Below, one piece after another: positions 37,159-63,198 of a stretch of 63,198 nucleotides of DNA (its first letter is position 1; the number at the start of each line of letters is the position of its first letter). The notes under the pieces are model-generated. The model was not told where the DNA came from, searched no databases, and saw only the letters and a list, made by a program, of their open reading frames with translations. This DNA is from Gemmatimonadaceae bacterium (GTDB lineage Bacteria > Gemmatimonadota > Gemmatimonadetes > Gemmatimonadales > Gemmatimonadaceae), in the NCBI GenBank assembly GCA_040901985.1, contig JBBDYC010000002.1, forward strand, positions 102,457-165,654, in the 5' to 3' direction. Position numbers and translations under genes: made by a program.

Positions 37159-40100
37159 TCACCGCGTGTCGGCAGAGAGGAGCACGAACGACGCCCAATA
37201 AAATGGATGGCGGGTGGCGGGGTCGGCATAGAGCGCGCGCCGCGCGTCGGTGAGGGCGTCAATCGTCGCTGCGCCTGCGGCCAGCCGTTCGTGGAGCACG
37301 GCCGCGAGACGAGCCGCCGACGGGCCGATCGGCCAGTGCGTCGCGACCACTTCGCGCGCGCCGGCGCGCAGGAATGCACGCGAGAGACTGAACGCACCCT
37401 CGCCCGAGAGAGCCGTGCCGGCGGCGGTCGCACAGGCACTCAGGATTACCAATGCGGGCGCGCCGTCCCAAGCGCCGAGTTCGACGGTGTGCAGGTAGCC
37501 ATCGCTCGCCCGTCCCGCCGCCAGTCGGAGATGTGAGGCCGCTGGATCGCCACGGTCGTTCACCGCGTGGGCCACGACGTGCAGGATGTCCGGGTCGCGC
37601 CGCCGTGCGTGGAGCGCTTCCTCGGTCGCCCGAGGACCGACGAGCTCGGTGATGTTCGCCGATCGCCAGGCGTCGCGTACGGCGCGGCGCTCGGTTTCCA
37701 CGCCGGGCGCCTCCTGTGCGACGATCAGGATCTTACCCGCCCGCAGCGGCGAGCGGTCGGCAATCGCCCACGCGCCCGGCACATAGCCGACCGAAGCGGC
37801 GAGGAGGAGCGGCCGGCTCGGCGCGACGGGGTCGGGGAGCATCTCGAACGGCAGCGCTGCCAATGCGCCGTCGGCGGCGATGAGAACGCGCCGGGCCGCG
37901 CGAAGTTCGCCGGCCACAGGGTCGAGCAGCGCGCGCGACAACCGCCGGAGCGCCGCGCTGTCGGTGCGGACGCGGGCGAGATCCACTTCGCCGAGCCAGA
38001 CGTCATCGAGGCCGCGTCTCGCCCGGCCGACGTCGGCAGCGATGCCGACGGCCGCCTCCCCAAGGCGATGCACGGTGAGCGTTGTCCGCGTCATCGCGAT
38101 GACGTGCGCCTGTCCGTCGGCGAGGAGATAGTCGAGGAATAGCGTGCCGGGGGCGAGTCGCGCCTGCATCGCGTTCACCGGTGGAATCGCCGCCGCTCGC
38201 TCACCGCTCGTCCGCAGCGCTGCGGCCTTCCGGCGGGCCGACCAGTCGAGGAGCGCAGCCGCGCGAAGCTCCGGTTCCCGGAGCAGGAGCGCGAGCGCGG
38301 AGTCAAACGGCGCCAAGTGACGATCACGGAATGATGCACGGTCGAGGTCGGCGTCGAGACCGACGCTCGTCGTGTCCACGACGTTCGCCGCGGTCCGGTA
38401 CGCGGCGAGCGCGTCCGCCGTGCGTCCGGCGCGAGCGGAGGCGTCACCGGTGGCGAGGGCGGCCTCGAAGCGCAACCCGGGGTGCTCCTCGAGAAACCGG
38501 TCGCGGAGGATCGCGCGTCCAAGCACTACGGCGCTGTCGGCGGCTCCTTCAAGCGCGAGCAGGCGCACGCCGAGCAACTGCGCCCCGATGGCCTCGGTGG
38601 GAGCGGCGGCGAGTGTGGCGAGTGACTCCGCGGCAACGGCCGCCCGCGCGACGTCTCCGCGCGCGCCACTGCGCAGCGCCATCCGCCCCCACGCCAGGTG
38701 CGCGAGCGCGGCCGCCTGCACGTCGCCACCGCGCGAGCGCTCGGCCGCCCACTCGGCGAGGATCCGCGTGGCGTCGGCAAGCCGTCCCTGACGCGCCAGG
38801 ACGTCCGGGAGCACCGGCACGTCGCCCGGTCGCCAGCCGCGTCGCGCCGCATCGTGCGCCCGCGCGACCACCGCCGCGCTGTCGAAGCGACCGAGCGCGG
38901 TGTACACCCGCGCGAGCCCAGCCAGGTCGAGCGGGTCCACTGGTGGCCGTCGGATTCCTGCCGCGTACATCTCCGCTGCTTCACGCAGCGACCCCCGCCG
39001 CTCCAGGTACTCGCCGGCCCATTGATGATTGTTGTCCTGCTCCCGCACCGCGGCGACCATCCGCTCGTAGTCGACGTTGGCCGCCGCGTGCCACCCGGCC
39101 TTCCGTTTGATCTCTCCCGCATCGCGCAAGGCGATGACCCGAAGCCCATCCCACTTGAAGGGCGTGGTGATCGCGATGAAGCGGTCGGCCGCAGCGGCGG
39201 CCTCGGGCCAGCGCCCGAGCCGCTCATACGCGTGCGCAAGGTTATGCCAGGCCTCGGCGAGCTCGTAGACATCGTCAATGGCGGTGCCTATTGCCACCGC
39301 ACGGCGGAGGTCGGCAAGGCTTTCCTCCGTGCGACCGGCCCGGCTCAACGCCCGGCCGCGGAGCACGCGCGCGCTCAGTTCGAGCTGAGGTGATCGGCGG
39401 TCGAGGGCGACTGCCAGCGCGCGGTCGAGATCGGACATCGCGCGCGCCGGTTCGCCCTGACTGATCAGCAGGCGACCGAGCATCGTGTACCCCGAGACCT
39501 CGGTGCGCCAATCCCCGAGCGCGCGCGCCAGAACGATCGTCTCGCGCCGGATTGCCTCGACGCTCTCGGCGTCTCCCGCGAGAATCTGGAGCTCCGCGTC
39601 AATGTCGCGGACCAGGCGATAGTGCAATGCGGGGTTTCCGTCGCGGCGCACGGCCACGGCGAGCGCACGGTACCGCGCAATCGCACGTAGCGTGTCGCCG
39701 ATTGCCAGCGCGGTGGACGCGCATTGAATCTCGAGGTGGAGCCGGTCCGGGGGGTCGGTGAGCGCACGGCGAGCGGCATCACAGGTCGCCGCGACGTGCG
39801 CCCGGTCAACGCGGCTGGGCGTGTTGACGGCGTCAAGCCAGTGCGTGACGATCTGCGGCGACGCGGCGATGGCGCTGTCGAGAAGCGCGAGCAGCGGCGG
39901 TCCCCAATGCGATGGGTTCTGGCTGCGCGCGGCGACCATCGCGCGGACGGAAAGCGCACAGTCGCGGGCGCGCGGCGACCCATCCACCAATCGTAACTGT
40001 GAGTCGGCGCGGGCAACTTCTCCCTCGTCGAACCCCGGCACGAACGAAAACTCCGCCACCGCCTGCAGGCACCTCGTCACCCCGGAATCGCCGTCGCGCC

Positions 40101-40344
40101 GGGCGCGGTACTCGGCGGCGACGGCGCGAAAGTCTCCATCGTCCCAGCGACGCTTGAAGTAGGTGAAGTGAATTGCGTGATCGTCGGGCGAGACGCGGAT
40201 CGCACGCTGCAGGAGCCGAAGCGCCGAGTCCGTCTGGCCGAGGACGAGCAGTTCCTTCGCCGCAAGGTGCAGTGCGCGGCCATCGGCGACCCGTGAAGGC
40301 GGCTCCGCGACCTGCAGGAGCAGCGAGACCGCGAGCGGCGTCAG
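37159..40344 (-). CDS. TPR-CHAT (caspase-like) protease, about 1060 aa
   Basis: N-terminal TPR-like helices; CHAT motifs DG.LA.LPFE.L, ILHVVAHA (His), LVILSAC (Cys), AFL.AGA..V..T.W.I and HPFYWA.F. Start proposed at CTG 40344, overlapping the anti-sigma stop. Confidence 0.88.
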   Translation of the reverse strand: MTPLAVSLLLQVAEPPSRVADGRALHLAAKELLVLGQTDSALRLLQRAIRVSPDDHAIHFTYFKRRWDDGDFRAVAAEYRARRDGDSGVTRCLQAVAEFSFVPGFDEGEVARADSQLRLVDGSPRARDCALSVRAMVAARSQNPSHWGPPLLALLDSAIAASPQIVTHWLDAVNTPSRVDRAHVAATCDAARRALTDPPDRLHLEIQCASTALAIGDTLRAIARYRALAVAVRRDGNPALHYRLVRDIDAELQILAGDAESVEAIRRETIVLARALGDWRTEVSGYTMLGRLLISQGEPARAMSDLDRALAVALDRRSPQLELSARVLRGRALSRAGRTEESLADLRRAVAIGTAIDDVYELAEAWHNLAHAYERLGRWPEAAAAADRFIAITTPFKWDGLRVIALRDAGEIKRKAGWHAAANVDYERMVAAVREQDNNHQWAGEYLERRGSLREAAEMYAAGIRRPPVDPLDLAGLARVYTALGRFDSAAVVARAHDAARRGWRPGDVPVLPDVLARQGRLADATRILAEWAAERSRGGDVQAAALAHLAWGRMALRSGARGDVARAAVAAESLATLAAAPTEAIGAQLLGVRLLALEGAADSAVVLGRAILRDRFLEEHPGLRFEAALATGDASARAGRTADALAAYRTAANVVDTTSVGLDADLDRASFRDRHLAPFDSALALLLREPELRAAALLDWSARRKAAALRTSGERAAAIPPVNAMQARLAPGTLFLDYLLADGQAHVIAMTRTTLTVHRLGEAAVGIAADVGRARRGLDDVWLGEVDLARVRTDSAALRRLSRALLDPVAGELRAARRVLIAADGALAALPFEMLPDPVAPSRPLLLAASVGYVPGAWAIADRSPLRAGKILIVAQEAPGVETERRAVRDAWRSANITELVGPRATEEALHARRRDPDILHVVAHAVNDRGDPAASHLRLAAGRASDGYLHTVELGAWDGAPALVILSACATAAGTALSGEGAFSLSRAFLRAGAREVVATHWPIGPSAARLAAVLHERLAAGAATIDALTDARRALYADPATRHPFYWASFVLLSADTR

Positions 40345-41039
40345 CGTATGCCGAAGGCCCCGATGCTGTCGACGAGGGCGTCCGCCTGTCGCCGGAGGGT
40401 GGCGTCGCTGATGGCGCGCAGGTCGGCCACCGCCGGCGCCGCCCGTCCCGCCCGCAGGTGCGCCTTGGCGCGATAGTACCGCGCCTCGTCGTGGTAGGCT
40501 GACTCCGGAGACGCCAACAACGCATCGTAGGCGTCGCGCGCAAGGCTGTCGGCACCGACCATCAACGCGCTTGCCCCGAGGAAGAACAGCACGGGCGGCG
40601 CGTCGGCCACGACGCGGAGGGCGCTCAGTTCGGTCATCGCGCGCGCGTAATCGCCGCGCCGATACGCCTGCATTGCCGCGTCGAAGCGCGCATCGCGTTC
40701 GTCGCTGCGCACCGCAATCCCGATATGGATCGGCGCCGTATCGAGCCCGCCGAGCGTGGCGAGGCGCGAATCGGTCACGACCGGGCGGGTCAGGAGGAGC
40801 ACGAGCGCCGCCGCGGCCGCCACGCCGGTCACTGGCCAGACCCACCGGGCGCGCGCGGCCTGCGGCGAAGCCCCCGCCGCGCGGAGCGTCATCCCGACCT
40901 CGACCTCGGCCTGACACGCCGCGCACTCGAGCAAGTGCGCCTCGAACCGCGCGAGCGCGTCGCCGACGAGTGTCCCGGCCACGAACCGCGCGGCGAGACC
41001 GTCGGTGTCGGCCTGCAGATGGGTAAGGTCGGCGGTCAC
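40341..41039 (-). CDS. Membrane anti-sigma factor (zf-HC2, one TM, TPR-like extracytoplasmic domain)
   Basis: FEAHLLECAAC (HxxxCxxC); TM segment WVWPVTGVAAAAALVLLL; helical C-terminal repeats; RBS GGAGG; GTGA overlap with sigma. Confidence 0.85.
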   Translation of the reverse strand: MTADLTHLQADTDGLAARFVAGTLVGDALARFEAHLLECAACQAEVEVGMTLRAAGASPQAARARWVWPVTGVAAAAALVLLLTRPVVTDSRLATLGGLDTAPIHIGIAVRSDERDARFDAAMQAYRRGDYARAMTELSALRVVADAPPVLFFLGASALMVGADSLARDAYDALLASPESAYHDEARYYRAKAHLRAGRAAPAVADLRAISDATLRRQADALVDSIGAFGIR

Positions 41040-41629
41040 GGCGCGTCCTCCGTCGGGGTAAGTGCAGGTTGCATACCCAGAGTCGGATTCGGCGGCCGAA
41101 CGTGACCGTCGCCGAGGGTGAGCAACTCGCGCAACCGCTCGATCGCGCGCGATTTTCTCTTGCGGACACGCTCGGGCGGCTCGCCGAGCCGCGTCGCAAT
41201 CTCTGACGGCGCCAGGCCGTCGAAGTAGCAGAGCCGGAGGAGGTTGCGGTCAGTGGGGGACAGTCGGGCGAGGGCGGCGTGGACGGCGGCGCGCTCGTCG
41301 GCGCCCAGTAGCCGCGCGAGCGGATCCTCGGCCGGCGCCGCGACCGCGGCGGCGGCGCTCAATGGTGCCAGACGGGCGGCATTGCGCTGTCGGTCGGCGA
41401 TGACGTGGCGCGCGATGCCGGCGACAAAGGCCGCGAGCCGCCCCACCTGCACGATGGTCCCGCGATCCGCGGCGACCACCGCGCGCGCCAGCGCTTCCTG
41501 CGCCACCTCCTCGGCAGCGCTCCGATCGCCAAGTGCGCGGAGCGCGAGCAACTCGAGCCCGTGCCGGAGGGCCTCGAGCTGCGAGAGGTCCACGGTCGTG
41601 GATCCCGGGTCGGGCTGGGGCGATGTCAC
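41036..41629 (-). CDS. ECF RNA polymerase sigma factor
   Basis: AEEVAQE, F..GIARH...D..R (region 2) and L.L.YFDGL..SEIA..LG.....VR.RKSRA...LR (region 4). Confidence 0.9.
   Translation of the reverse strand: MTSPQPDPGSTTVDLSQLEALRHGLELLALRALGDRSAAEEVAQEALARAVVAADRGTIVQVGRLAAFVAGIARHVIADRQRNAARLAPLSAAAAVAAPAEDPLARLLGADERAAVHAALARLSPTDRNLLRLCYFDGLAPSEIATRLGEPPERVRKRKSRAIERLRELLTLGDGHVRPPNPTLGMQPALTPTEDAP
41082..41106 (-). promoter_or_regulatory. Putative ECF promoter (GTCACG-N15-CGAC) in the 3' end of the sigma gene, facing anti-sigma and CHAT
   Basis: Minus strand reads GTCACG ttcggccgccgaatc CGAC; same motif and spacing as at 41625. Confidence 0.6.
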
Positions 41630-41649
41630 GCTTGGGGCGCTCGCACGAC
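41625..41649 (+). promoter_or_regulatory. Putative ECF promoter (GTCACG-N15-CGAC) facing the Ig-repeat lipoprotein gene
   Basis: GTCACG cttggggcgctcgca CGAC; overlaps the sigma GTG start codon on the opposite strand. Confidence 0.6.
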
Positions 41650-43012
41650 AGGAGGGAACGGGGCCGTCCGTCCGGACAGCGCCCCGATAATCCTGCCCGG
41701 GCCGGCCCGGCGCAAGCTTGGAGGCTCAATTGATGCGCGTCCGCCCCCGTGCCGGTTTCACCGTCGGCCTGATCATCGCGGGATCCCTCCTGCTCCGCGC
41801 CTGCGAATCGCCGACCGAGCCAGCAGCGGTGGCGAGCGTCACGGTTACCCCGTCGTCGGTGGTGCTCCACCCCACCCAGACGCGCCAATTGACCGCGACC
41901 GTTCTCGCCGCGGACGGGGATCCGCTGACCGGGCGGACCCTCACCTGGACCAGTTCGAACGAGGCCGCCGCGACCGTCAATGGTGCGGGATTGGTGACCG
42001 CCCTGGCGCTCGGCGATGCCACGATCACCGCCACCGTGGAAGGAATCTCCGGCACCGCCACGGTTTCCGTGGTCGCCGTGCCGGTCGCGTCGGTTCTCGT
42101 GACGCCGGCGACCGGGAACGTGATCATCGGCCAGACACTCCAGCTCACGCCCACGACGCGCGACTCCGTGGGCGGAACGCTCACCGGGCGCGTGGTGACT
42201 TGGGCGACCTCCGACGCCACCCGGGCCACGGTCTCGACGACCGGCCTCGTGACCGCCATCGGACTCGGACCGGTGACAATCACGGGAACGAGCGAAGGGG
42301 TTGGCGGGACCGCCCAGCTGACCATCGTGCCGGTGCCAGTGGACTCTGTCGGCGTATCGCCTGCCACGGCGACGCGCCTTGTCGGCCAATCGGTCCAGTT
42401 CACGGCCACGGCGTACGACTCGGTGGGCGGCGTCCTCGCCGGCCGCGCCGTGACCTGGAGTTCGTCGACCGTTGCGATTGCGACAGTGGACGCCGACGGA
42501 TTGGTGACCGCGGTCGCCGCCGGCGTGGCGACCATCACCGCGACAAGCGAAGGTGTGGAAGGCACGGCGGCAATCACGGTCAACAACGTGCCAGTGGATT
42601 CGGTGGAGGTCCAGCCCGATGCCGCGCAACGCCATCCGGGTCAGACCGCGCAGTTCACGGCCACGCCCTACGATTCCGCCGGAGGCGCGCTCAGCGGCCG
42701 CACGACCGCCTGGACGTCGTCGAACGTGGGTGTGGCGACCGTGTCGGAGAGCGGCCTGGTGACCGCCGTCGCGCCCGGCACGAGCACAATCACCGCGACG
42801 ATCGAAGCGGTCTCGGACACCGCATACATCGTCGTGGTGGCGGTCCCGGTGGATTCGGTGGCTGTCACGCCGTCTGCGGCGACGCGCCATCCGGGCCAGA
42901 CGGTCCAGCTGAGCGCGGCCACCCTGGACTCCGCCGGTGGCACGCTCACCGGCCGGACGGTCAGCTGGACGAGTTCGAACGCGGGCGTGGCGACGGTGGA
43001 CGGATCCGGACT

Positions 43013-44106
43013 TCTGAGGTCAAGTTTGAAGTGCAACACTGAGCGTCACGCGGCATAGAGTTCCTCCGGGGTGTGCCAGTTGTACCGCTTGCGTGGCCGA
43101 CGGTTGATCTTGTCCGCGATGCGGTCGCAGTCGGCCTGCGTGAGGTACTCCATGCTCACGCCCTTGGGCAGGTACTGCCGAATCAGTCCGTTCATGTTCT
43201 CGTTCGAGCCGCGCTCCCACGAGTGATGCGGCGTCGCGAAGTAGAACTTCGCCGGGATCCGCGCCTCGAGCGCCTTGTAGCTGTGGAACTCGGTGCCGTT
43301 GTCCGCGGTGATCGTGCGCACCGGCTGCCGCTCGCGCCGAATGAGGGCTTCGAGGCGCGCGTTCAGATCGGTCGCCGCGCGGCGCTCGAGCTTGCCGATG
43401 ACGACGTAGCCCGTCTTGCGTTCGACGAGCGTGACGATGCAGGCGCCGCCCTGGCTGTTGCCGAGCACGGTGTCCACCTCCCAGTGGCCCACCCGCGACC
43501 GGTTCTCGGCGCCGGCCGGGCGGGTCGAGATGTGGCGCTTCCCGGCGAGGCGGCCCCGACTGTCATACGCCCCGTAGCGCTTTCGAAACGGCTTGTTCGC
43601 CCGGCGCAGATGGACGTGCAGCGTGCCGCCGCGCTTCATGTCCGCCCAGATGTAGCGGTAGATCGTCTCGTGGCTGATCGCGAGGATCCCGAAGCGCGCG
43701 AACCAGCCGACCACCTGCTCGGGGCTGAAGTCCTCGCGCAGCACCGACTCGACCAGCGCCCAATCCTCGGCTCTGAACTGCGAGTTGCGGCGCGAGGTGC
43801 GCCGCCGGCGGTTCGTGTAGCTCTGCGCCTTGAACGGCCGGTACGTCCGGCCATCCTCGCGCCACACGTTCCGCCGCACCTCGCGGCTGATAGTGCTGCG
43901 GTGTCGGCCGACCTCGCGCGCGATGGCGGCGCAGCTGTAGCCGAGCTTGCGCAGGGCCGAAATGGCGTACCTTTCCTCGAGGGTGATCTGGGCGTAGGTC
44001 ATGGCTTCCTTTCTCTTGGAGGAGGATTGAAGCCTAGCCTGCCCCAGGTCACCTCACCCACATCGGCGCGTGGGCAAGGTGTTGCACTTAGTATGTGAAT
44101 GCACGA
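43013..44106 (-). mobile_element. IS30-family insertion sequence
   Basis: Imperfect terminal IRs share AAGTGCAACAC. Target duplication is CT (or GACT at 43009-43012 and 44105-44108). Confidence 0.9.
43046..44002 (-). CDS. IS30-family transposase
   Basis: HTH (IA..VGRH.STISREVRRN); DDE motifs WEVDTV, TADNGTEF and WERGSNENMNGLIRQY.PKG; RBS GGAGGA/AAGGA. Confidence 0.95.
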   Translation of the reverse strand: MTYAQITLEERYAISALRKLGYSCAAIAREVGRHRSTISREVRRNVWREDGRTYRPFKAQSYTNRRRRTSRRNSQFRAEDWALVESVLREDFSPEQVVGWFARFGILAISHETIYRYIWADMKRGGTLHVHLRRANKPFRKRYGAYDSRGRLAGKRHISTRPAGAENRSRVGHWEVDTVLGNSQGGACIVTLVERKTGYVVIGKLERRAATDLNARLEALIRRERQPVRTITADNGTEFHSYKALEARIPAKFYFATPHHSWERGSNENMNGLIRQYLPKGVSMEYLTQADCDRIADKINRRPRKRYNWHTPEELYAA

Positions 44107-45867
44107 CTCGTGACGGCCGTTGCGCCCGGCGGCGCGACGATTACCGCGACGAGTGAAGGCGTGGAGGGGACGGCGAGCATCACCGTCGAGGCGGTTCCGG
44201 TGGATTCCGTGGCCGTTACGCCGACTGCGGCAACACGACACCCGGGGCAGACGGTCCAGTTGACCGCGGCACTGCTCGACTCCGCGGGCGGCACGCTGAC
44301 CGGCCGCGTGGTCAGCTGGGCCAGCTCGGATGAGGCCTTGGCCGTGGTGGATGCGTCAGGGCTCGTGACGGCGGGTGCCGTGGGAACCGTCACGATCACC
44401 GCGACGAGCGAAGGAGTGGACGGCACGGCGACGATTACGATTGTCGCCGTGCCCGTCGCGAGTGTCGAAATCAACCCCGACACCGCGGAGATCGAGATAG
44501 GCGACACGTTCCAGTTCTCCGCAATTCTCCGCGATTCAGCAGGCGGTTCTCTGGCGCGCACGGTGGTCTGGAGTTCGCTCGATCCGGCGATTGCCACGGT
44601 GGACGGTGCCGGCTTCGCGACCGCGGTGGCAGAGGGTCTCGCCCGCATCGTGGCGACGAGCGAGGGGAAGGCGGACACGGCGCGGCTCTCGGTGACTGCG
44701 CCGGCACAACCCGGCCCGGCCGTGGTGGGGCCGTTCAATGTCCACGTCACGAGTTCGCCCGAACACTCGCAGGGCGTTGCCACCGACGGAGTAACGGCGC
44801 TCTACGCCATGCAGACCGGGAGTTTTGGCGGCGGCAGCAACTCACTGTACGTGGTCCGCGTGGACTCCACCGGCGCGATCCTCGGCGGCCCGGTGCCGCT
44901 CAACGCAAATGGCGACCCGCCGGCGCTCGCGTACGGTGGCGGGACGTATCTCGCCGCTGCCTGGCTCCCCGGCGGCATCTCAACCTCCCGGCGCACGTCC
45001 GCGTGGCTCGTCGCACCCGACCTCTCGTCAATTGGATCCGAGATCGTGCTCGCGGCCGGCGATGAAGCAGGCGCGATCTGCGGACTCGCGTATGGCGGTG
45101 GCACGTTCCTCGCGACGTATTTGCGTTCGGTGGGAGTTAACGACAACGGCGACTCGCTGACGGCCCTGTTTGGTCGCGCCATCTCTCCCACTGGCGTTTT
45201 GGGCGGCGAGATTGCCGTGAGCCCTGGCTTCGCGGCGTGCCATACGATCAACAACAGCGCCGCATCCGACGGGACCGGCTTCCTCGCGGCCTGGACGGTA
45301 CAGGATTCCGCCACGGCGTCGGACGGCGTTGGTGTCCAGGCACGCACCATCTCAAGTGGTGCCGTGCTGGGCGCAGTCCACAGCGTGCGGAGCACGACCG
45401 TTCTCGGGCGCTTTCTCAGCGTCGCGCCGCGCTCGACCGGCGGTTGGGTTGTCGGGCTCGGGGAAATAGTCGACGAAGTCACCGGGAACGTCGACGCCTA
45501 CCTTCAGCCGTTGGCGGCTGACGGATCGACAAGCGGTGGGCTGATCACGCTCGACGAGACGGCGGCGCCGATGGTCGTGACGGTCTCGGAGTGGGAATTC
45601 GGATTCGTGGCACTGACGATCGAGCGGCCCGGGGACGTCTCAACCCAGGTGATCCGGCTACGTCGCTACGATGCGTCGGGGGCGCCGACCGGCGTTGATC
45701 TCACGCTCGCCGGGGCCGACGGGGCGTCGAAGGTTCCGGTCTCGCTCTCGCTGACAGGGACCGCGCGGATCTTCGTGGTGGCCCAGTTTTACACATACCT
45801 GGAAGGGAGTGGGCTCGAGGCCGACGAGGCGTCCGGCGACGTCCGCGGCGTCTGGGTCCGACCCTGA

Positions 45868-53259: not shown

Positions 53260-54132
53260 TTAGCCTGCCCTGAGCAACTGCGTTTCATATTGCACGGGCG
53301 ATCGAAAGCCCAGCGACGAGTGTTGTCGCTCCCGATTGTACCATACGTCGATGAACTCGGCGACGGCGCGTCGCGCCGCCTCCCGCGTGTCGAAGGGCCC
53401 GTCGTCCAACAGCTCCTTCGTGAGCGTCGCGAAGAAGCTCTCGACCACCGCGTTGTCCCAGCAGTCGCCCTTGCGGCTCATGCTGCCGGCGAGTCCGCCG
53501 TCGCGGAGCGCGCGCTGATATGCCACGCTCGCGTACTGTGAGCCGCGGTCGGAGTGATGCAGCACACCGCACGCGTTCCGCTGACGGCGCGCCATCTGCA
53601 ACGCGGCGAGCGCCAGCTCGTGGTCGAGCCGCACACTCGCGCCCCAGCCCACCACGCGGCGCGACGCCAGATCCACCACCACGGCGAGATAGAGCCAGCC
53701 CTCGCGCGTCGGCACGTACGTGATGTCCGCCGCCCAGCGCCGGTTGAGCCCCGGTTGTTCGTGCACCGCAAAGCGTCGCGCGAGCACGTTTGGTGCCACC
53801 GGCTGCGCGTGCGCCGAGTTCGTCGTCACCACGAAGCGGTGCGCTCCCTTCGCGCGCAGGCCCGCGACGCGCATCAGCCGCGCCACGCGCTTCTCGCTGC
53901 ACTGATGCCCCGCCGCGCGGAGCTCGCGGCAGAGCCGCGGACTCCCGTAGCGCCGCCGGAGGCGGTAGAACTGCTGCCGCACGTGCACCAGGAGCGCCGC
54001 ATCGGCCTGCTTCCGCAACCCAAACGGTTCGGCACGCCACTTGTAGAAGCCAGCCCTCGACACCTGCAGCACCCGGCACATCGTGGTGATGCGCCAAGTG
54101 GTGGCGTGCGCATGGATGAACGCGTATCTCAC
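53260..54132 (-). CDS. IS3 transposase OrfB (integrase core)
   Basis: YGSPR, WAADITY, HHSDRGSQY, CWDNAVVESFF and YN..R.HSSLG..SP motifs. Confidence 0.93.
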   Translation of the reverse strand: MRYAFIHAHATTWRITTMCRVLQVSRAGFYKWRAEPFGLRKQADAALLVHVRQQFYRLRRRYGSPRLCRELRAAGHQCSEKRVARLMRVAGLRAKGAHRFVVTTNSAHAQPVAPNVLARRFAVHEQPGLNRRWAADITYVPTREGWLYLAVVVDLASRRVVGWGASVRLDHELALAALQMARRQRNACGVLHHSDRGSQYASVAYQRALRDGGLAGSMSRKGDCWDNAVVESFFATLTKELLDDGPFDTREAARRAVAEFIDVWYNRERQHSSLGFRSPVQYETQLLRAG

Positions 54133-54422
54133 CGCGCATCCCTGGCGAAGAAGGCCGTCGCTTTTTTTAGGATCTCGCGCTCCTCCTTCAGGCGCGCGTT
54201 CTCGCGCCGGAGCACGCGGTTCTCCTCCGCCAGCGTCGGCGGGCGCTGATCCGGCGGCGCGTACCCCGCCACGCGCGCATCGCGCCGCCAATTGCGGAGC
54301 GTCTCCACATGGACCCCCAGTTCCTGCGCGAGCGCCCGGATGGGGGTCGTGCCCTCCTGCACCCGACGCAGCGCCTCCTCGCGGAACTCGATACTGTACG
54401 CCTTCGGCTGTGCCTTCTTCAT
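54129..54422 (-). CDS. IS3 transposase OrfA
   Basis: YS.EFREEA, HTH and EREILKKATAFFA; RBS AGGAGG. Confidence 0.92.
   Translation of the reverse strand: MKKAQPKAYSIEFREEALRRVQEGTTPIRALAQELGVHVETLRNWRRDARVAGYAPPDQRPPTLAEENRVLRRENARLKEEREILKKATAFFARDAR
54161..54168 (-). other. Programmed -1 frameshift site (A7G) joining OrfA and OrfB
   Basis: Minus strand CTAAAAAAAG in the OrfA/OrfB overlap, canonical for the IS3 family. Confidence 0.8.
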
Positions 54423-54488
54423 GGAACACCTCCTGTCCGGAATCTCCGTCCGGACCGTTGCGGTGTCCACTAAATCGGGTGAACATCA

Positions 54489-54537
54489 CCTTTCGCAGGG
54501 TCGGCCACGACGATATGACTGCGGAGATCACAGATGA
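54489..54537 (+). pseudogene. Last about 15 codons of an Rhs toxin C-terminus, truncated by IS3
   Basis: LSQGRPRRYDCGDHR* matches the end of the 60450-61070 toxin (HSQGRPRRYACGTH*); ATGA overlap with the next gene. Confidence 0.7.
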
Positions 54538-55052
54538 CGTCGCAAGTCCGAACAAGGGAGATTCCGCGCGAAGGGATTGTGACGCTAGGAACGTCGACGA
54601 GGTTGACCGTCTCCCTTCGCGGAGTCGGCATCGCCGTTGCCCTATTTGTCATCGCGAGTTCTTGCGTCAGGCCACCAACTCCTGTCATCACGCCTCCCCC
54701 GCTGGAACTTGATCCGGGTTGCGTTCCGATTTCGTTCGAGCATGGCGGGATTCGCGCGCGCGAACCGGATATTGAAGGCCTTCGGGACTCCGCCGGAGTA
54801 TTCTTTGGGATCGTCGTTGACAATGGTTCGGGATTTGCCCTTCCCGGTGCGTCCGTATCGGTGCACGGAGTTGTAGAGCGACGCGCCCGTAGCACCACGA
54901 CAGGAGGATTCGTGCTGACGGGCCTCCCGCCGGGCCGCTACGAGGTATGGGTTCGATCGATCGGGTACCATCCGACTAGAGATTCGATATTGGTGGCACG
55001 AGTCGCTTCGGTCTCAAAATTCTTTCGCCTTCAGGCCGTCAGTTGCCACTGA
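54534..55052 (+). CDS. Putative immunity lipoprotein with carboxypeptidase-regulatory-like domain
   Basis: Hydrophobic stretch plus ASSC; G.V.D..SG..LPGA.V...GGF...GLPPG.Y; paralog of 59953-60450. Confidence 0.7.
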   Translation: MTSQVRTREIPREGIVTLGTSTRLTVSLRGVGIAVALFVIASSCVRPPTPVITPPPLELDPGCVPISFEHGGIRAREPDIEGLRDSAGVFFGIVVDNGSGFALPGASVSVHGVVERRARSTTTGGFVLTGLPPGRYEVWVRSIGYHPTRDSILVARVASVSKFFRLQAVSCH

Positions 55053-55243
55053 TCGCGGAGACCGTGATGATTTGAGGGCGGCGGCGAGGGCGGCTTGGGG
55101 CGCACCATTCACGTACTCCAGCCGAGTACGCTCGATTCACCACCTCAGCACCCGCGAGGCCCCCCGATTGTCAGCATAGGACTGGACTCAAGTCGGGGGG
55201 AATCCCGTGCGCCCACACACTCCAAATCGAAGACGAGTGAGAC

Positions 55244-55729
55244 ATGAGAACCCTCGGCGCTTGGCGCGTTGTTGCCTCTGCCATCATCATCGTAGTCCTC
55301 TCGGGACCTGCGTGCTCACAACAAGCGAGTATGCGACGAGCGTATGAACGCGCTGGGGCGCCCCCACCTTCCTTCCCGTCGCGAAGCGAGAGGCGCGCAA
55401 TAGAGGCACTAGTTCGCGAGTTTTGGACTGCCGCGCAGGCACGTGACTCAATTCGCATCGATGCGTTGTCGAGCTCGCGCGCGCCATTGGAATACGTTGG
55501 TGCCTTCTTTTTTGGCGGGAGTTGGCTCGATGTTCCGTACGATCACCTCGATGTACTTCAGCCGTATAAGCCTGCGAGCCCAAGTAATCACTATGTAGTG
55601 CAGGTCACCCTTCCGAGGCAAGCTTGCCCACCGCAGTATGGTTTGAAACGCCAGAAAGAGTTCGTGTTCGAAGTCATTGAGGCTGAGGGGCGTTTCCTCG
55701 TCGCGCGAGTCGGAAGTGATCCCTGCTAG
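55244..55729 (+). CDS. Orphan lipoprotein, possibly NTF2-like; putative immunity protein
   Basis: Signal plus GPAC; AIEALVREFWTAAQARDS resembles AEATMRAWLSAVARGDS in 57153-57542. Confidence 0.55.
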   Translation: MRTLGAWRVVASAIIIVVLSGPACSQQASMRRAYERAGAPPPSFPSRSERRAIEALVREFWTAAQARDSIRIDALSSSRAPLEYVGAFFFGGSWLDVPYDHLDVLQPYKPASPSNHYVVQVTLPRQACPPQYGLKRQKEFVFEVIEAEGRFLVARVGSDPC

Positions 55730-55957
55730 TGTGATGCGCCGGAGATCGCTCTAGCGAATTGGCTGTGAGCTGCTCCTGATTCTGCGGACGGGAACTTGGC
55801 CAACGGCGCCGCATTTTGTCGCCAAGATGATCCGTAGTCGATTCCATCGCGAAAGCCACTACGTTACCATCCCCGCTCCCCTTCGTCTCTCCGCCTACGA
55901 GGTGCGCCGCCGGAGTGACCGGACAGGTGCCCCGCCCTCTCTCCACGCGGAGACACC

Positions 55958-56995
55958 GTGCGTATCGAAGTCGCGCTCGACCAGCATCTGACAGACCTCC
56001 GCGCCATTGGCGCAGCACCAAGCACGACTTCGGGCCGTCGCAATCTACTCAAGTCATTTGTCGCCTATTGCGAGGCGACTGGTGTCACCACGATCGGCGC
56101 ACTGACGTACGCAGTCGCAACCAACTACCAACGGCACCTCTCTGACGTCCGCAACGCCAACGATATCACGTGCTCGATCGGCGGCCAGCGCAATCGCCTC
56201 GTCGCCCTCCGCATGTTTGCCCGATGGGCCGTGCGAACGGGTCTTCTAGATGCGGACCCAACATCAGCCCTCGTCCTTCCCCGACTGCCGCACCGACTGC
56301 CGCAGTCCGTGCTGACATCGAGTGAGGCTGAGCGGGTCCTCGCAGTTCCCGACGTCACCACGCGTCTTGGTCTCCGCGACCGCGCGATCCTCGAACTCCT
56401 CTACTCCTCAGGAATCCGGCGACTCGAACTCATCGCAATCGACATCCCTGATCTCGACCTCGCCCGTGGCGTTCTCTTTATTCGCCTTGGCAAAGGACGA
56501 AAAGACCGGTACGTCCCTGTTGGACAACGCGCACTGGGATGGATCGACCGCTACCTGAGCCGAGCCCGGCCGCAGTTGGTACATCGAACAGATCCCGCCG
56601 CGCTGTTCATAGGAAAGCGCGGCACACGACTGAGCCGCTCACGGATCACGGAACGGATGCATGGTTATCTTGCCGAATCCGGAGTGGCGAAACCCGGAAG
56701 CTGTCACGTGTGGCGCCACACGATGGCCACACTGATGCACGAACGTGGTGCGGACATCCGCGACCTTCAGGTGCTGCTCGGCCATTCACAACTCTCCACT
56801 ACCGCGATCTACACCCATATTTCCACGGAGCGCCTTCAGGAGGTGCACCGGCGAACACCCCCCACCGCGCGCGCAATACACAGCCACACACCGGCACCGC
56901 TCACCACCGAGACCTCAGTCTCCGGCCGGAGTCCGCATGGACCGGAACCGATCACGCAGGCCTCGAACTCGCACGCTGGATGGATCGAGTGCTAG
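55958..56995 (+). CDS. XerC/XerD-like tyrosine recombinase
   Basis: N-terminal SAM-like domain; full catalytic set: R (GIRR), K (GKGRKDR), HxxR (HVWRH), H (LGH), Y (IYTH). Confidence 0.92.
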   Translation: MRIEVALDQHLTDLRAIGAAPSTTSGRRNLLKSFVAYCEATGVTTIGALTYAVATNYQRHLSDVRNANDITCSIGGQRNRLVALRMFARWAVRTGLLDADPTSALVLPRLPHRLPQSVLTSSEAERVLAVPDVTTRLGLRDRAILELLYSSGIRRLELIAIDIPDLDLARGVLFIRLGKGRKDRYVPVGQRALGWIDRYLSRARPQLVHRTDPAALFIGKRGTRLSRSRITERMHGYLAESGVAKPGSCHVWRHTMATLMHERGADIRDLQVLLGHSQLSTTAIYTHISTERLQEVHRRTPPTARAIHSHTPAPLTTETSVSGRSPHGPEPITQASNSHAGWIEC

Positions 56996-57074
56996 TGCTT
57001 GAGTTGCCCACGAGAGCTTGTTCCCAGCATCCCAACTCGTGCAAGAATCTGCGAATCGTCACGGGCACCGTGAA

Positions 57075-57118
57075 TGGAGTTCGCCCTCTCCAATGAATAG
57101 CCAAGTTAGCCTGCCCTG
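57075..57118 (-). mobile_element. Isolated degenerate IS3 right end
   Basis: tggagttcgccctctccaatgaatagccaagttagcctgccctg aligns without gaps to 53229-53272. Confidence 0.8.
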
Positions 57119-57152
57119 TAGCCCGAGACTTTTATAGCGACGATCCGACGAA

Positions 57153-57542
57153 CTACGGAGAGTCTAGGTTAAGCGGCGCGGCCATAATCAACCGCCACGC
57201 GCCAGTTCGCCGCTCCAAAGCTGCCCCGTATCTCCTCTCAAGGTCGAGCGCCAACCTGAACTCTACAAAAGCGGAGTCGCCCGTCTGAAAGAGCGTTTGC
57301 AGTACAATGGTACTGTCGGCTGCCCGCCGATTACCGAGCGTACTATCACGCAGAAGAGTGCGCGCCAGCGCGATCCCGGAACCGCCGTGCGTCAATGAAT
57401 CCAACGCAACAGAGTCCCCGCGGGCGACAGCAGAGAGCCAGGCTCGCATCGTGGCCTCCGCAGGAGAGTCTGGCTTAGCCTGAGCTGAGTGGCATGCCCC
57501 GAAGAGTATCGTGGCGGCCACTAGTGGTATCAGTACTTGCAT
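57153..57542 (-). CDS. Putative immunity lipoprotein (NTF2-like)
   Basis: Lipobox LFGAC; start overlaps the toxin stop; C-terminal LERRTGAWRL. Confidence 0.65.
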   Translation of the reverse strand: MQVLIPLVAATILFGACHSAQAKPDSPAEATMRAWLSAVARGDSVALDSLTHGGSGIALARTLLRDSTLGNRRAADSTIVLQTLFQTGDSAFVEFRLALDLERRYGAALERRTGAWRLIMAAPLNLDSP

Positions 57543-58240
57543 CGAAGCGGCTCCCCTAGATACGCGTGGGCGATATTCTCGGCCGCGACAGCCATCGCTT
57601 GTCCTGACCGAAGCTGTTCGCTCGCTGTTCTTCCCGCGTTGTGCCGCGCTGGATCGAATCGCATGCCCCACGCATGCCCCAACAACTCATGGGCAATAAT
57701 AGAAGCGAAATCGTTATCGGCGTAGTCTGTGGTTGTGCTGAAACAATTCCCGTTGCGGTCACGCGAGAAGTAGCCGCCCCTAAGACTCAGATCAAGGCCT
57801 ACCCGACGAGCCCACGGATAGTAGGCCGACTCCGCGCCCGAGACGCCAACGTAGTACGTTTGGCCATCTTCATGCAACTGGGTGAGTCGACGCCGCAGAA
57901 ACTCCGCCCGCACCGAGTTGGAGTCGGTAACGGCTATGGACTTAATGCAACCGAAGTCGTCGACCTCGATCTTTGATCCAGTGGCGCGCTCAGTCTCGCG
58001 AACGAGCCGACTGCGCTGCGCCGATCCAAAGCACACTATGAATCCTGATGGGTCAGAATTGTTGACAGGGTCTCCTGCGGCGTATCCATATTGGTTCAGT
58101 CCTCCTTTCAGCCCGATCGGGTCGCGCTGCGTGAAGCGGCCCGTTGCTGGATCGTAATACCGATTGCGCACGTACTGCAAGCCGCTCGCGTCCGCCTTGC
58201 CGTCCAGGAGGCTGCCATACCAGCTGACCTCGGCCGGGGG
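57530..58240 (-). CDS. Orphan Rhs core tail plus HExxxH metallopeptidase-like toxin (5' truncated)
   Basis: WYGSLL...SGLQYVRNRYYDPATGRFTQRDPIGL.GG.NQYGYA.GDPVN.SDPSG, then IIAHELLGH...AENIAH...GEPLR. 5' boundary approximate. Confidence 0.85.
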   Translation of the reverse strand, partial: PPAEVSWYGSLLDGKADASGLQYVRNRYYDPATGRFTQRDPIGLKGGLNQYGYAAGDPVNNSDPSGFIVCFGSAQRSRLVRETERATGSKIEVDDFGCIKSIAVTDSNSVRAEFLRRRLTQLHEDGQTYYVGVSGAESAYYPWARRVGLDLSLRGGYFSRDRNGNCFSTTTDYADNDFASIIAHELLGHAWGMRFDPARHNAGRTASEQLRSGQAMAVAAENIAHAYLGEPLRCKY

Positions 58241-58429
58241 CTCGATCCGAGTGTCATTCCCCGGACAGATCCCTCGCGTAGCGGTACGGATCGTCCGGGC
58301 GCGTGAAGACGTCGGTGTGGTGGTTGCCCCGGGTCGGGGCTCGAGTCCGTGTACACCCGGGGGTGTGTCCGCGTCGCCTGCTAGGCGTTCCCCGGAACCG
58401 GAAACGTTGTGTTCGTCTCGACGAAAGCT

Positions 58430-58453
58430 GGGACAACGCAACGTGCTTGTCCC
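58430..58453 (-). terminator. Hairpin downstream of immunity gene 58473-59120
   Basis: gggacaa-cgcaacgtgc-ttgtccc; weak U-tract. Confidence 0.35.
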
Positions 58454-58472
58454 GCGCTGCTTCCAGCATGCG

Positions 58473-59120
58473 TCATCTCAGGAGTATGGTGTGCTGCACA
58501 CCGATACCAGTGAGTGCCGCGATGTCCCGCGCCAACTGCGCGGCGGAATCGGTACCTACTGGGCACGGGAAATACCGTACGTGCCGTTCGCGACCTCTAC
58601 GACGGTCGATCAGTAGATCAAAATCGCCCTGGACGCAAGAATGCGCTGCGGTGTGCTCAGGTGCCTCGGCAGCGAAGAGCGTGACAATTCGGTCGACGAG
58701 CGATACGATTTCCACCTCCGTCATTCCTAGAAGAAGGTCGCAAGTTGCGATGCCACCATATGCAACCGTCGCCGAGCCGACACGCAAGGAACCTGGCCGG
58801 CATACCTGGAGCAATAGGAGCGAGTCCAACTGATAGCCAGCAGGTCTTGTCGCCAACGACAGCGTCTCAAGTATCAGAATGCCGCGAAGCTCTGGTGACT
58901 GGTCACCTCCGACCTGCATCTGAACCTCCACGCGCGGCGAGCAACCGGAACATCCGGCGACCACGCGCCACATAGTTCGTGCAGATGCGGCGTCAGGATG
59001 GACGACACTCTCTTCAGATGGATTGCCCGCTTCAGCGCGTTCGGTGCCCCGATCGCAGGCAAGTGCCGTACCAGCAAGAGCAAGCGAAACAACGAAGGAC
59101 CGCGTCTTCGCCGTGGTCAT
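58473..59120 (-). CDS. Putative immunity lipoprotein (Cys-rich)
   Basis: Lipobox ALAC; ATGA overlap with the toxin stop. Confidence 0.65.
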   Translation of the reverse strand: MTTAKTRSFVVSLALAGTALACDRGTERAEAGNPSEESVVHPDAASARTMWRVVAGCSGCSPRVEVQMQVGGDQSPELRGILILETLSLATRPAGYQLDSLLLLQVCRPGSLRVGSATVAYGGIATCDLLLGMTEVEIVSLVDRIVTLFAAEAPEHTAAHSCVQGDFDLLIDRRRGRERHVRYFPCPVGTDSAAQLARDIAALTGIGVQHTILLR

Positions 59121-59682
59121 GGCCGTGTACCGTCGGGTTTCGTAGTTGAAGGCGTATAGGGACCGAGGTCATCGTAGTCGGTACGGTCTCGCAATCCTAT
59201 TTCAGCGTGCACCAGGTTCTGCATGTCCACGCCACAGGCCTCTCGATTCTCGCCGATGCAGTTGGCTGGCGTACCGCGACGCATCCCAGCAACCGCATGC
59301 GAGAACTCATGCGCGTACACGGCTTCCCATTCCATTTCGCCATTTCGCCGAACTCCCTCACTGTTTAGAAGAATGGTCCCCGAACCGTTGCCGTTGCCGG
59401 CGTAAAACCCACCCCCGAGTTCTGCCACCAGTTCTTCTTCATATTCTCCAAGCGTGTTGCGAATAACGAGGGTATCTGGCGAGTTAGCGGCGAGATTGTA
59501 CCAGCGCCTGAAGGTTGCGGACTTGCGAGTTAGCCTCCAAATGCGTTGCCGATGGCTTTGCGAAAGGTCGCGATCATCAATGATGAGCCCAAACGGATCC
59601 GCGTGATTGACCGGGTCCCCGCCCGCATACCCATACTGGTTGATGCCGCCGGCCAGCCCAATCGGGTCGCGCTGCGTGAACG
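59117..59682 (-). CDS. Orphan Rhs core tail plus HExxH metallopeptidase-like toxin
   Basis: FTQRDPIGLAGGINQYGYAGGDPVNHADPFGL, then VYAHEFSHA...E...QN...EIGL..R..Y. A possible TTG start lies at 59695. Confidence 0.85.
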
Positions 59683-59821
59683 GCACCAATTCCAATCACC
59701 AAGCACCTGGCATCACCACCATACTATACAGGCTAGGCGAACCCACTTCCGCAATCCTCCCCCGAACCAGCCGGTTCAGCTACGCGTCCGGAGGAATCCG
59801 CTTCTTCCGTCTGTAAAGCAT

Positions 59822-59921
59822 CGACGGCTCTCGTCGCTCGGCTTTCGATCGCCGGTGCAATACGAGGCGCATGTGCTTAGGGCAGGCTAACCTAGATGTC
59901 TACCTGAGCGGGTGAACTCCA
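59822..59921 (+). mobile_element. IS3 remnant: OrfB C-terminus plus right IR, inverted relative to 57075
   Basis: SSLGFRSPVQYEAHVLRAG* followed by ...gagcgggtgaactcca. Confidence 0.85.
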
Positions 59922-59952
59922 CCCGTTCCACACATCCCCGCCGCTGACTTGG

Positions 59953-60450
59953 TCACCGACAGTGACTGAACGCCTGCATTCTGTACGATCGCGCGACGAC
60001 GGAGTTCGCGCGACTCGCAATCGTGTCGAGAAGCGGCCGATGCAGCGCGCGCAACGCCGTGAGCTCGTATTGACCAGGTAACAGTCCACGAAAGGAGAAA
60101 CCTCCGTCGAAACTCGTTCTCGACTCAAGAACCTCTGAGTGCGATAGCAGGCGCAGTCGAACTACCACATCGGGAACGGCAAAGCCAGAACCGAAGTCGG
60201 CTACTGTACCCACTACTGTAGCGCTACCGTCGCGCGGAACTGGAGGCTCGAGGAGAACCGGCACAACTCGGTCGTGCTGGAGTGCCGTGGGATAACACCC
60301 GTTCTCTGCTTCCGCACCTGCGACCGGTCCCAAGCGTGTCGCAACAAATGAACAGCCGAAAACAGCGGCGAGTGCACAGAGCGCCACGACTTGCAGCCTC
60401 CAAGGTCTGTTTCGAAATGGCAACTCTGGATTGCGTATAATTCCGCGCAT
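59953..60450 (-). CDS. Putative immunity lipoprotein with carboxypeptidase-regulatory-like domain
   Basis: Lipobox VFGC; GTVADFGSGFAVP...DGGFSFRGLLPGQY; TGATG coupling to the toxin. Confidence 0.7.
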   Translation of the reverse strand: MRGIIRNPELPFRNRPWRLQVVALCALAAVFGCSFVATRLGPVAGAEAENGCYPTALQHDRVVPVLLEPPVPRDGSATVVGTVADFGSGFAVPDVVVRLRLLSHSEVLESRTSFDGGFSFRGLLPGQYELTALRALHRPLLDTIASRANSVVARSYRMQAFSHCR

Positions 60451-61070
60451 CAGTGAGTTCCGCATGCGTAGCGCCTCGGCCGACCCTGTGAGTGATGAAT
60501 CTCGTTTTCCCAGTCCATCGCAGCATCAGGATTCAGCGTGTGACCCAGTTGATAAGCGGGATGACCAAATTCGTGAGCGGTCATAGACTCCTCTGTGTTG
60601 CGGGTCTGACTGTTTTTCTCGCAGTTACCGCGCGCATCATGCGTGTAGTACTTTCCGAATCTCAAGGCAAAGCGGTTAAGGTCGATAATCAAGACAAGGT
60701 CTCCGGTCGCTAGGGTACCACTGCTGAGTCGACTCTGTGTCGGTCGAAACAGTGACCACCGAACGTAGATTGTTACCTCTCTGCTCTCCGCCAACTGCTT
60801 GAAAGCCGTGGCCCGATCGGTAACGGGGCCGACTATGACAACGTTCTTCGCGCAATTGTCGTCATCCAAATCAAACGTCGTGCCAGTCGCGCGCTCGGTC
60901 GCGGCCCTCTGTCGGAGGATGGATTCTTTGCTTCCCCGAAAACAGACCCTCTCTCCAAAAGGGTCTGAGTGGTTCACCGGGTCGGCCTCGGCGAAACCAT
61001 ACTGGTTAAGTCCACCAACTAGCCCAATCGGGTCCCGCTGCGTGAACCGCCCCGTCCCCGAATCGTACCA
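60450..61070 (-). CDS. Orphan Rhs core tail plus HExxH metallopeptidase-like toxin (no start before the core)
   Basis: In-frame TGA, then WYDSGTGRFTQRDPIGLVGGLNQYGFAEADPVNHSDPFG, then MTAHEFGH...WENEIH...GRPRRY. Confidence 0.85.
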   Translation of the reverse strand, partial: WYDSGTGRFTQRDPIGLVGGLNQYGFAEADPVNHSDPFGERVCFRGSKESILRQRAATERATGTTFDLDDDNCAKNVVIVGPVTDRATAFKQLAESREVTIYVRWSLFRPTQSRLSSGTLATGDLVLIIDLNRFALRFGKYYTHDARGNCEKNSQTRNTEESMTAHEFGHPAYQLGHTLNPDAAMDWENEIHHSQGRPRRYACGTH

Positions 61071-61105
61071 TCAGGTGCGGGTGTACCGCACCCGCCCGGC
61101 GCAGT

Positions 61106-61699
61106 TCATCGGGCTCGAGGAAAAGGCCCCACCACCGCCTCGGCACGCCGGGCGACGCGTTCAAGTTCGTCGAGCACCTCCGGCGCCTCTTTGAGCTTCG
61201 CCAGTTCGCTGAGGTCGGCCCAGAGTTGCGGCCAGGCCAGTGCGCCCTTCTGCCGCACGAGGACTCCTTCGATGTCGACCCAGTCTTGCGGTCGACCAGC
61301 GAATGCCTTGTGCACCACGAGGTCCGTCGCCGTGCAGGTCCGCAGGACGGCCCCGTGCGCCAGCTCCGCGTCAGTCGCACGGGCGATCGTCGCCTCCTCG
61401 AACGGCATCGCCCCCAGCGCCACATCGACGGCGAACCCGTCCGCCGTGCGGAGCAACAGGACCCGATGCTGCCGCGCGAAATCCGCGGCGTCCGGGATGC
61501 GGGGATCAAGGTCCTCAAGCAGGGCGGTGATTACCGGCTCCTCGCCGCCGAAGCCGGCCAGCACGGTCAGGTCCAGATCGTTCGTGAGCCGCGGCGTTCC
61601 CCAGCGGAAGTTCGCGATGCCGCCGATGAAGCAGAACCGGAAGCCGCGCGCGACGAGTCCGGCCTGCACGCGGGCGCCCGCCTGCAGCAGCGATCTCAC
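61106..61699 (-). CDS. AbiEii/MenT1-like nucleotidyltransferase, putative toxin
   Basis: IGG.A....PR.T.DLD, VD, T..DLVVHK and RPQD..D motifs; GTGA overlap with the small upstream gene. Confidence 0.8.
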   Translation of the reverse strand: MRSLLQAGARVQAGLVARGFRFCFIGGIANFRWGTPRLTNDLDLTVLAGFGGEEPVITALLEDLDPRIPDAADFARQHRVLLLRTADGFAVDVALGAMPFEEATIARATDAELAHGAVLRTCTATDLVVHKAFAGRPQDWVDIEGVLVRQKGALAWPQLWADLSELAKLKEAPEVLDELERVARRAEAVVGPFPRAR

Positions 61700-61923: not shown

Positions 61924-62115
61924 GGACGAAAGGTACCACGCCCGCGCCCGGCACGCCCAAGACTCTGAGGCGCACGCGAGCGTACGCCATCGCGGTGCAG
62001 GCCAAACCGCCGCGGCAAAACGATAGGTTAGGCCTGAGTTTGCAGGGCCCTTTCAGGTTCTCGGCACCCAGGACTTGGCCAAGCGCAATCAGCCACCTGA
62101 CCCGCCCATTCGCCT

Positions 62116-63179: not shown

Positions 63180-63198
63180 GATTCAATCGTAGGCAGAC

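Follow-up and report, generated by a model that had tools for sequence, protein, structure and literature searches.

The closest described relatives of the genes considered here are DdvS and DdvA of Myxococcus xanthus, a sigma factor of the extracytoplasmic function (ECF) class and its membrane-bound inhibitor, which have been characterised and for which structures are available (PDB 8rot, 8rw5; PMC11506125, PMC6061681). The authors proposed that the CHAT domain of DdvA cuts the anti-sigma linker in the periplasm, as an autoproteolytic event, but could not test it, and reported that DdvA, once truncated in its linker, is broken down by RseP (PMC11506125). A cut in trans is known from Craspase, in which Cas7-11/Csx29 was shown experimentally to cut Csx30, the inhibitor of CASP-sigma, and in Escherichia coli a site-1 cut outside the membrane in the DegS/RseA/RseP system, followed by RseP, frees an ECF sigma factor (PMC10028731). 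In this study, we analyse a stretch of 63,198 nucleotides (the window) from a Gemmatimonadaceae bacterium (GenBank assembly GCA_040901985.1, contig JBBDYC010000002.1, positions 102,457 to 165,654), in which a sigma factor, an anti-sigma and a protein of tetratricopeptide repeats (TPRs) and a CHAT domain are encoded by three overlapping genes, head-to-head with an immunoglobulin (Ig)-repeat lipoprotein gene.

On balance, and by a modest measure, we favour a two-protein switch of the DdvA type, in which a signal-gated CHAT cut after R111 of the anti-sigma, followed by RseP, frees the sigma factor for surface lipoprotein genes. The anti-sigma would hold the sigma factor at the membrane and the TPR-CHAT protein, presumably exported, would dock onto it on the outer side of the inner membrane; a signal would then activate the CHAT dyad, the linker would be cut after R111, RseP would degrade the remaining stump, and the freed sigma factor would transcribe surface lipoprotein genes together with fresh anti-sigma and CHAT. 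A candidate promoter inside the sigma gene would remake the latter two without sigma and would therefore reset the switch. To the more specific proposal, that the CHAT protein is a dedicated, exported, Arg-specific and separase-like protease acting as a trans site-1 enzyme for its own anti-sigma, with a cut at a predictable linker Arg, and that the regulon is a dispersed set of Ig-stalk/beta-propeller surface lipoproteins, we give slightly less than an even chance.

Three overlapping genes and the arginine of the anti-sigma linker

An earlier note on this DNA, made from the letters alone, had described the three genes as chained by 4-nt overlaps, with an HxxxCxxC motif and a membrane segment in the anti-sigma and an intact His and Cys dyad in the CHAT protein, and this description is borne out in full by the coordinates, the Pfam domains and both junctions, which read GTGA between sigma and anti-sigma and CTGA between anti-sigma and CHAT (Table 1). 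As the second overlap reads CTGA, the start of the CHAT gene would be the rare codon CTG; the same overlap, again followed by a hydrophobic segment, is found in the CHAT orthologue of a genome of the same genus (49% identity), and the corresponding overlap in a paralogous trio on contig C14 of the present genome is GTGA. The alignment profile of the CHAT protein finds DdvA (8rot) as its best solved relative (E 1e-16), which plain phmmer against the solved structures missed, returning a TPR match only. H926 aligns with the catalytic H862 of DdvA and C971 follows 45 residues later, the spacing seen in DdvA. When residues 674–1061 are modelled (89 rows, pLDDT 91), the fold shows the topology of a caspase, with structural matches to Csx29 (Foldseek E 2.6e-16), DdvA and separase. 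H926, C971 and E885 are invariant in all 14 rows of the subfamily, at 26–64% identity. E885, kept in 98 of 99 CHAT rows, lies on helix alpha1, and W1004 lies on loop L5; going by topology, the two appear to occupy the places of the Arg-binding Asp163 and the lid Trp284 of the gingipain RgpB (PMC4357240), which would make E885 the predicted S1 acid.

The earlier note had also raised the possibility that the CHAT protein is extracytoplasmic. Export now looks very likely, judging by the N-terminal hydrophobic segment that opens 37 of the 42 tandem CHATs, compared with 10 of 166 internal windows, and the cysteines near the N-terminus that are conserved among close relatives (Cys92/129/188/208) fit with it as well. 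Together the three genes specify a sigma factor, its inhibitor at the membrane and a caspase-like protease that is likely exported. Because this signal-like start is so common and is absent from true fusions, the alternative that the two downstream genes are a frameshifted anti-sigma-CHAT fusion is unlikely; the anti-sigma stop codon lies at 40341–40343 and CHAT stands in a different frame with its own hydrophobic N-terminus, and relatives are alike in this.

In the anti-sigma, the zinc motif (H35-x3-C39-x2-C42) falls within a modelled three-helix anti-sigma domain (ASD), a single membrane helix covers about residues 66–84 (73–83 in the model; hydropathy 2.2), residues 97–113 beyond it are non-helical in the model, and residues 114–228 are modelled as a domain of three TPR-like repeats, predicted to be periplasmic. 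The anti-sigma profile matches DdvA residues 10–88 (E 7.5e-4). It had been suggested earlier that CHAT engages the TPR-like domain, which is not what the family points to: in most relatives the periplasmic domain of the anti-sigma is beta-rich and unrelated to it, and the conserved arginine lies in the linker. A comparison of the anti-sigma TPRs with the CHAT TPR profile (probability 10.5%) indicates no special kinship. R111, in the non-helical stretch, does not vary in any of 16 subfamily rows. After one row that lacked a membrane helix had been dropped, 52 anti-sigmas linked to CHAT were compared, and 50 of them have an Arg motif 8–31 residues past this helix. Leave-one-out scores reach at least 4 bits in 43 of the 52, compared with 1 of 32 controls, these being the members of 58 zinc-finger loci, from 10 genomes without a CHAT match, that have a membrane helix and a sufficient tail. 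Contact or cutting is therefore more likely to take place in the linker that joins the membrane helix to the TPR domain, whose arginine is predicted to fit the acidic S1 pocket of CHAT, than in the TPR domain itself. A gene for RseP is present in the genome, scoring above the cut-off.

Several observations weigh against a cut at this position. The Arg-motif score of the window anti-sigma is a modest 4.5 bits, a looser Arg pattern also matches 15 of the 32 controls, and the sequences behind these counts are related and hence not independent. The L5 Asp (W-x-V-x-D) present in 94 of 99 CHAT rows is missing in this subfamily, which in addition has Ala after the catalytic His and not the Gly found across the clan. 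No cleavage has been shown for DdvA, whose dyad mutants H862A and C907A still repress (PMC11506125). In one clade, with 25 of the 98 CHAT rows, the catalytic His has been lost, whereas trio and Arg motif are both retained (quick tree, SH-aLRT 99, one frameshifted row left out), so the arginine can persist without a canonical dyad.

This clade is the main argument for CHAT binding over cutting, and it leads to an alternative that we consider unlikely, although it deserves some weight: a non-cutting co-inhibitor, which would dock the linker arginine in S1 and shield the anti-sigma in the way that the fused domain of DdvA blocks RseP, until the TPRs bind a signal and other proteases gain access to the linker; the sigma factor and its lipoprotein targets would be those of the favoured switch. 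A separate periplasmic partner able to shield an anti-sigma has a precedent in RseB of E. coli. The repressing dyad mutants are as expected of such an inhibitor, as is the finding that removal of TPR-CHAT exposes DdvA to RseP (PMC11506125); the RgpB prodomain inhibits by an Arg placed in S1 (PMC4357240), and the candidate internal promoter would make anti-sigma and CHAT together, as two inhibitors would be. Against this stand the invariance of the dyad and of E885 over the divergence of the subfamily and the retention of both His and Cys in 73 of 98 rows, the loss of His being a single event. In the His-less loci (within L039–L126) the Arg of the anti-sigma is directly preceded by a His in 15 of 20 instances, compared with 0 of 32 loci with an intact dyad; since the association is confined to one clade it counts as one event, and a His supplied by the substrate is only a lead.

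A candidate promoter and the interrupted lipoprotein gene

The upstream DNA of loci whose sigma factor is similar contains the motif GT(C/A)ACR-N15-YGAC(A/T), which may be the promoter of this sigma. In 15 such near-sigma loci (233 kb) it has 23 matches, compared with 0–2 for six other spacer lengths, and only 2 matches fall in 51 other loci (679 kb); it stands before the divergent gene in 11 of the 15 and at the sigma 3' end in 6. Two loci that were not used in deriving the motif also carry it. In L193 it stands before the anti-sigma and again before a downstream lipoprotein gene, a count of two that 0 of 200 shuffles reach, and in the same-genus locus it is found only at the sigma 3' end, there being no divergent lipoprotein gene there. 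In five relatives, 10 of 22 matches are at trio loci and 7 of those lie 66–143 nt before a frame bearing a lipobox, the trio-locus matches overlapping with the 15-locus count. Two of the 14 matches in the present genome precede intact lipoprotein genes on contig C19, most of the others lying inside genes. One of the two (L224:3651-5672) encodes a protein of 637 aa with Kelch and PKD domains and carries a 79-nt stretch that copies, at 84% identity, the DNA upstream of the Ig gene in the window, and the other (L225:1381-3997) encodes a protein of 841 aa with Ig-like and Kelch domains.

The assignment has its weak points. The motif was derived by eye from some of the loci in which it was then counted; 2 of the 15 near-sigma loci, including the paralogue in this genome, are without it; the two matches in the window could be due to chance, as 7 of 100 shuffles reach that number; and the genome-wide count of 14 is similar to that for other spacers (5–19). 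Outside the trio loci no excess was found, with 12 matches in the five relatives and 11 in five control genomes, like background. The match before the Ig gene (41625–41651), which shares bases with the start codon of sigma, comes close to a palindrome (TGTCA...CGACA); it may also be read in the opposite direction or disturb the expression of sigma.

The divergent gene is not intact. Its seven Big_2 repeats of 85 residues are interrupted in the fifth by an insertion sequence (IS) flanked by a 2-bp CT duplication, and the two halves rejoin as a single frame of 1012 codons. Elements of the IS30 family are about 1.1 kb in length and have an IS30 transposase, terminal inverted repeats and a target duplication of 2–3 bp. 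The element of the window belongs to this family by its transposase, length, ends (which share an 11-nt core) and CT duplication. An assembly artefact is rejected as its origin: unitigs of sequencing run X1 extend across each of the two junctions, identical to the window, and none of the listed joints omits the element (two joints are not shown), although run X1 is not independent, as it is possibly the source of this DNA. No identical copy of the element is present in the assembly; five more distant IS30-like copies (74–87% identity) occur on contigs C3, C9, C11, C16 and C19, three of them at contig ends.

The 5' part of the gene now runs 14 codons into the element, to a stop at 43058, and has an atypical lipobox (L-R-A-C24), while the 3' part is without a signal peptide. 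The adjacent output in this genome is a headless lipoprotein of five repeats, and for work on the output other copies would serve better than the window, whose adjacent target gene is broken. Neither Pfam nor NCBIfam names the head of 390 residues, longer proteins include no homologue of it, and it has only unnamed neighbours in the Atlas, with one weak match among 60 relatives; we infer that it is propeller-like. In the same-genus genome the trio lies between the same flanking genes without the Ig gene, which marks that gene as a variable cassette. The large divergent Ig-repeat lipoprotein gene of the earlier note is thus there as described in its orientation and repeats, except that it is split. 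The further suggestion that the sigma factor switches it on gains a candidate promoter at the right place and loses force from the broken state and variable nature of the gene.

Occurrence in Gemmatimonadota and other features of the window

Sampling of 301 genomes of the phylum gave a CHAT match in 113, a tally to which one unpublished genome (G057), used for no other result, contributes. We analysed 80 CHAT loci, taken roughly by score among 150 listed matches (77 more being unlisted) with loci already covered and a few at contig starts left out. A sigma gene adjoins CHAT in 56: upstream in tandem in 32, convergent in 16, in the order CHAT then sigma in 4, nearby in 2 and fused in 2. The trio is accordingly conserved in other genomes, as the earlier note had proposed to check by a neighbourhood search, and in 27 of the 32 tandem loci a membrane anti-sigma with a zinc motif lies between sigma and CHAT. 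The split layout is common in Gemmatimonadota, and the best named full-length relative is a record from this phylum. The close sigma factor is rare within the genus (2 of 55 genomes). A scan of genome contigs gave 31 loci, mostly zinc-finger-only matches with 2 of full length, and a metagenome scan gave 3 weak loci. The two DdvA-like fusions keep the linker Arg, and their single membrane helix is not followed by a further signal segment; these (L084 and L106, possibly also L087), of about 1270 aa and consisting of anti-sigma, membrane helix, beta domain and TPR-CHAT, lie outside Myxococcota, and L084 and L106 are nested inside the His-less clade. In a close relative (L034:279-3684) the CHAT gene is frameshifted directly before the catalytic Cys, and at L035, L057, L076, L078 and L115 two TPR-CHAT genes stand in tandem, in some cases behind one sigma/anti-sigma pair.

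The second trio of the present genome, on C14 (L001:3942-11160), has an intact dyad and the linker Arg and lies divergent to a TIG-domain lipoprotein gene, the flanking genes encoding TIG and BACON lipoproteins and barrel-like proteins. As it has no promoter motif match, its sigma factor likely recognises a different promoter. Upstream of it, some 37 nt are similar to C19 around position 3490. Among 57 neighbours scanned (56 of the 84 nearest, chosen by eye as non-housekeeping, and one more), 31 contain Ig-like or beta-propeller families.

These neighbourhoods also bear on the role of CHAT. In 24 of the 80 loci there is no nearby sigma gene (5 of these having less than 5 kb upstream), which weighs against a dedicated sigma switch and is what would be expected if CHAT were an output protease, itself part of the regulon, that trims or sheds surface lipoproteins, another protease controlling the anti-sigma. 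The position of CHAT downstream of the candidate internal promoter and the exported Ig and propeller proteins flanking most trios would suit such a role too. We nevertheless regard it as improbable, given that only anti-sigmas linked to CHAT have the specific Arg motif, that natural anti-sigma-CHAT fusions occur in the family and that the trio is kept even at a locus that lacks the adjacent lipoprotein gene.

Other genes around the trio encode a phosphodiesterase-like protein, a CoA ligase and peptidases. A second insertion element, with two frames and an rve integrase and IS3-like in character (53260–54422), interrupts a secretin-like gene fragment and lies at the edge of a region of lower GC content (about 54000–63198; 0.60, compared with 0.70) that carries a tyrosine recombinase (55958–56995) and is likely an island. 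No Rfam match was found in the window.

Table 1. Features of the trio and of the divergent gene, in window coordinates
Feature	Position	Strand	Remarks
TPR-CHAT protein, 1061 aa	37159–40344	-	CTG start; Pfam TPRs and CHAT
CHAT protease domain, residues 798–1056	37177–37953	-	Pfam CHAT, E 2.8e-45
Anti-sigma, 232 aa	40341–41039	-	Pfam zf-HC2 above cut-off; membrane helix; TPR-like C-domain
Codon of R111 (A-V-R-S-D)	40707–40709	-	linker Arg, predicted P1; invariant in subfamily
ECF sigma factor, 197 aa	41036–41629	-	Pfam Sigma70_r2 and Sigma70_r4
Candidate promoter inside sigma gene 3' end	41081–41106	-	motif match; towards anti-sigma and CHAT
Candidate promoter, 83 nt before Ig gene ATG	41625–41650	+	-35 part overlaps opposite-strand sigma start codon
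Ig-repeat lipoprotein gene, 5' part	41733–43012	+	signal peptide, Cys24, Big_2 repeats 1–5 (255-nt period)
IS30-family insertion sequence, 1,094 bp	43013–44106	-	imperfect terminal inverted repeats; CT target duplication
IS30 transposase	43046–44002	-	NCBIfam NF033563, 284.7 bits (cut-off 80)
Ig-repeat gene, 3' part	44109–45867	+	rest of repeat 5, Big_2 repeats 6–7, 390-aa beta-rich head

Comparison with known systems

Both characterised relatives of the trio act in defence (PMC11506125, PMC10028731) and the trio is patchy within its genus, which could be taken to mean that it is a phage-defence regulator like DdvA-DdvS or Craspase, with CHAT sensing a phage protein and the sigma factor inducing defence genes. 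We think this very unlikely. The genome, which is 99.97% complete, has no Cas1 match, in keeping with the earlier view of the module as independent of CRISPR; of seven proteins, PADLOC matches just one, over only 59 residues in CHAT; the genes behind the motif encode surface lipoproteins; and DdvA-like pairs are themselves mostly not beside defence genes (PMC11506125). The lack of Cas1 and of a relevant PADLOC match gives no sign of a defence regulon like that of DdvS, CBASS genes not having been searched for genome-wide.

Craspase, to which the earlier note had likened the module as a counterpart independent of CRISPR, while naming no characterised system of exactly this layout, resembles the trio in having a TPR-CHAT protease of the same fold with a dyad, Csx29, that acts in trans on a separate anti-sigma. 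It differs in being cytoplasmic, activated by RNA and linked to CRISPR, and Csx30 is not a membrane anti-sigma with a zinc motif (PMC10028731). At the locus there is no Cas7-11 (for which the genome as a whole was not searched), CRISPR array, Csx30 or Csx31. In ECF54 of Actinobacteria a CHAT/TPR gene also stands beside the ECF sigma gene and proteolytic control has been proposed, yet there is no anti-sigma, the neighbours are subtilase and carboxypeptidase-regulatory genes, the promoter is GTATCAG/CTCC and the phylum is another (PMC7826278, PMC8999054). With respect to E. coli, DegS is a serine protease encoded elsewhere, whereas here a dedicated cysteine protease of clan CD is translationally coupled to its predicted substrate.

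DdvS and DdvA are closer than any of these, with the same parts in the same order in two genes and not three: an ECF sigma factor and then a zinc ASD, one membrane helix, a flexible linker, a TPR-like scaffold, TPRs and CHAT. Both proteins of the window match DdvA by profile, and the His-Cys spacing in CHAT is 45 residues in both. The published promoter of DdvS, GTAA-n16-CGT (PMC6061681), and the predicted motif differ, although both have a -35 of the GT(A/C)A type, and the DdvS regulon comprises CBASS and CRISPR defence genes, whereas the predicted targets here are Ig and beta-propeller lipoproteins. The DdvA type includes a dimer whose active site faces the linker of its partner and turnover that depends on RseP; here the comparison extends to the presence of the RseP gene.

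Fused DdvA forms were found only in Myxococcota and in one Comamonas, split forms not being described in the accessible parts of that paper (PMC11506125), and a literature search covering few subscription papers found no publication on the split form. The split system, with its candidate site R111, the dyad H926/C971 and a candidate promoter, makes the CHAT cut that was proposed for DdvA simply testable, and if the favoured switch is real, the family, with its split, fused and His-less forms, would allow such a cut to be tested cleanly on two separate proteins for the first time. The scope of CHAT/ECF signalling would at the same time grow beyond a defence regulator of myxobacteria and take in a common envelope switch that apparently controls surface lipoproteins. 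In its composition the trio is a variant of the DdvS/DdvA kind that stands outside the DdvA type proper, in that TPR-CHAT is not on the ASD polypeptide: what DdvA holds in one chain is divided here between proteins of 232 and 1061 residues.

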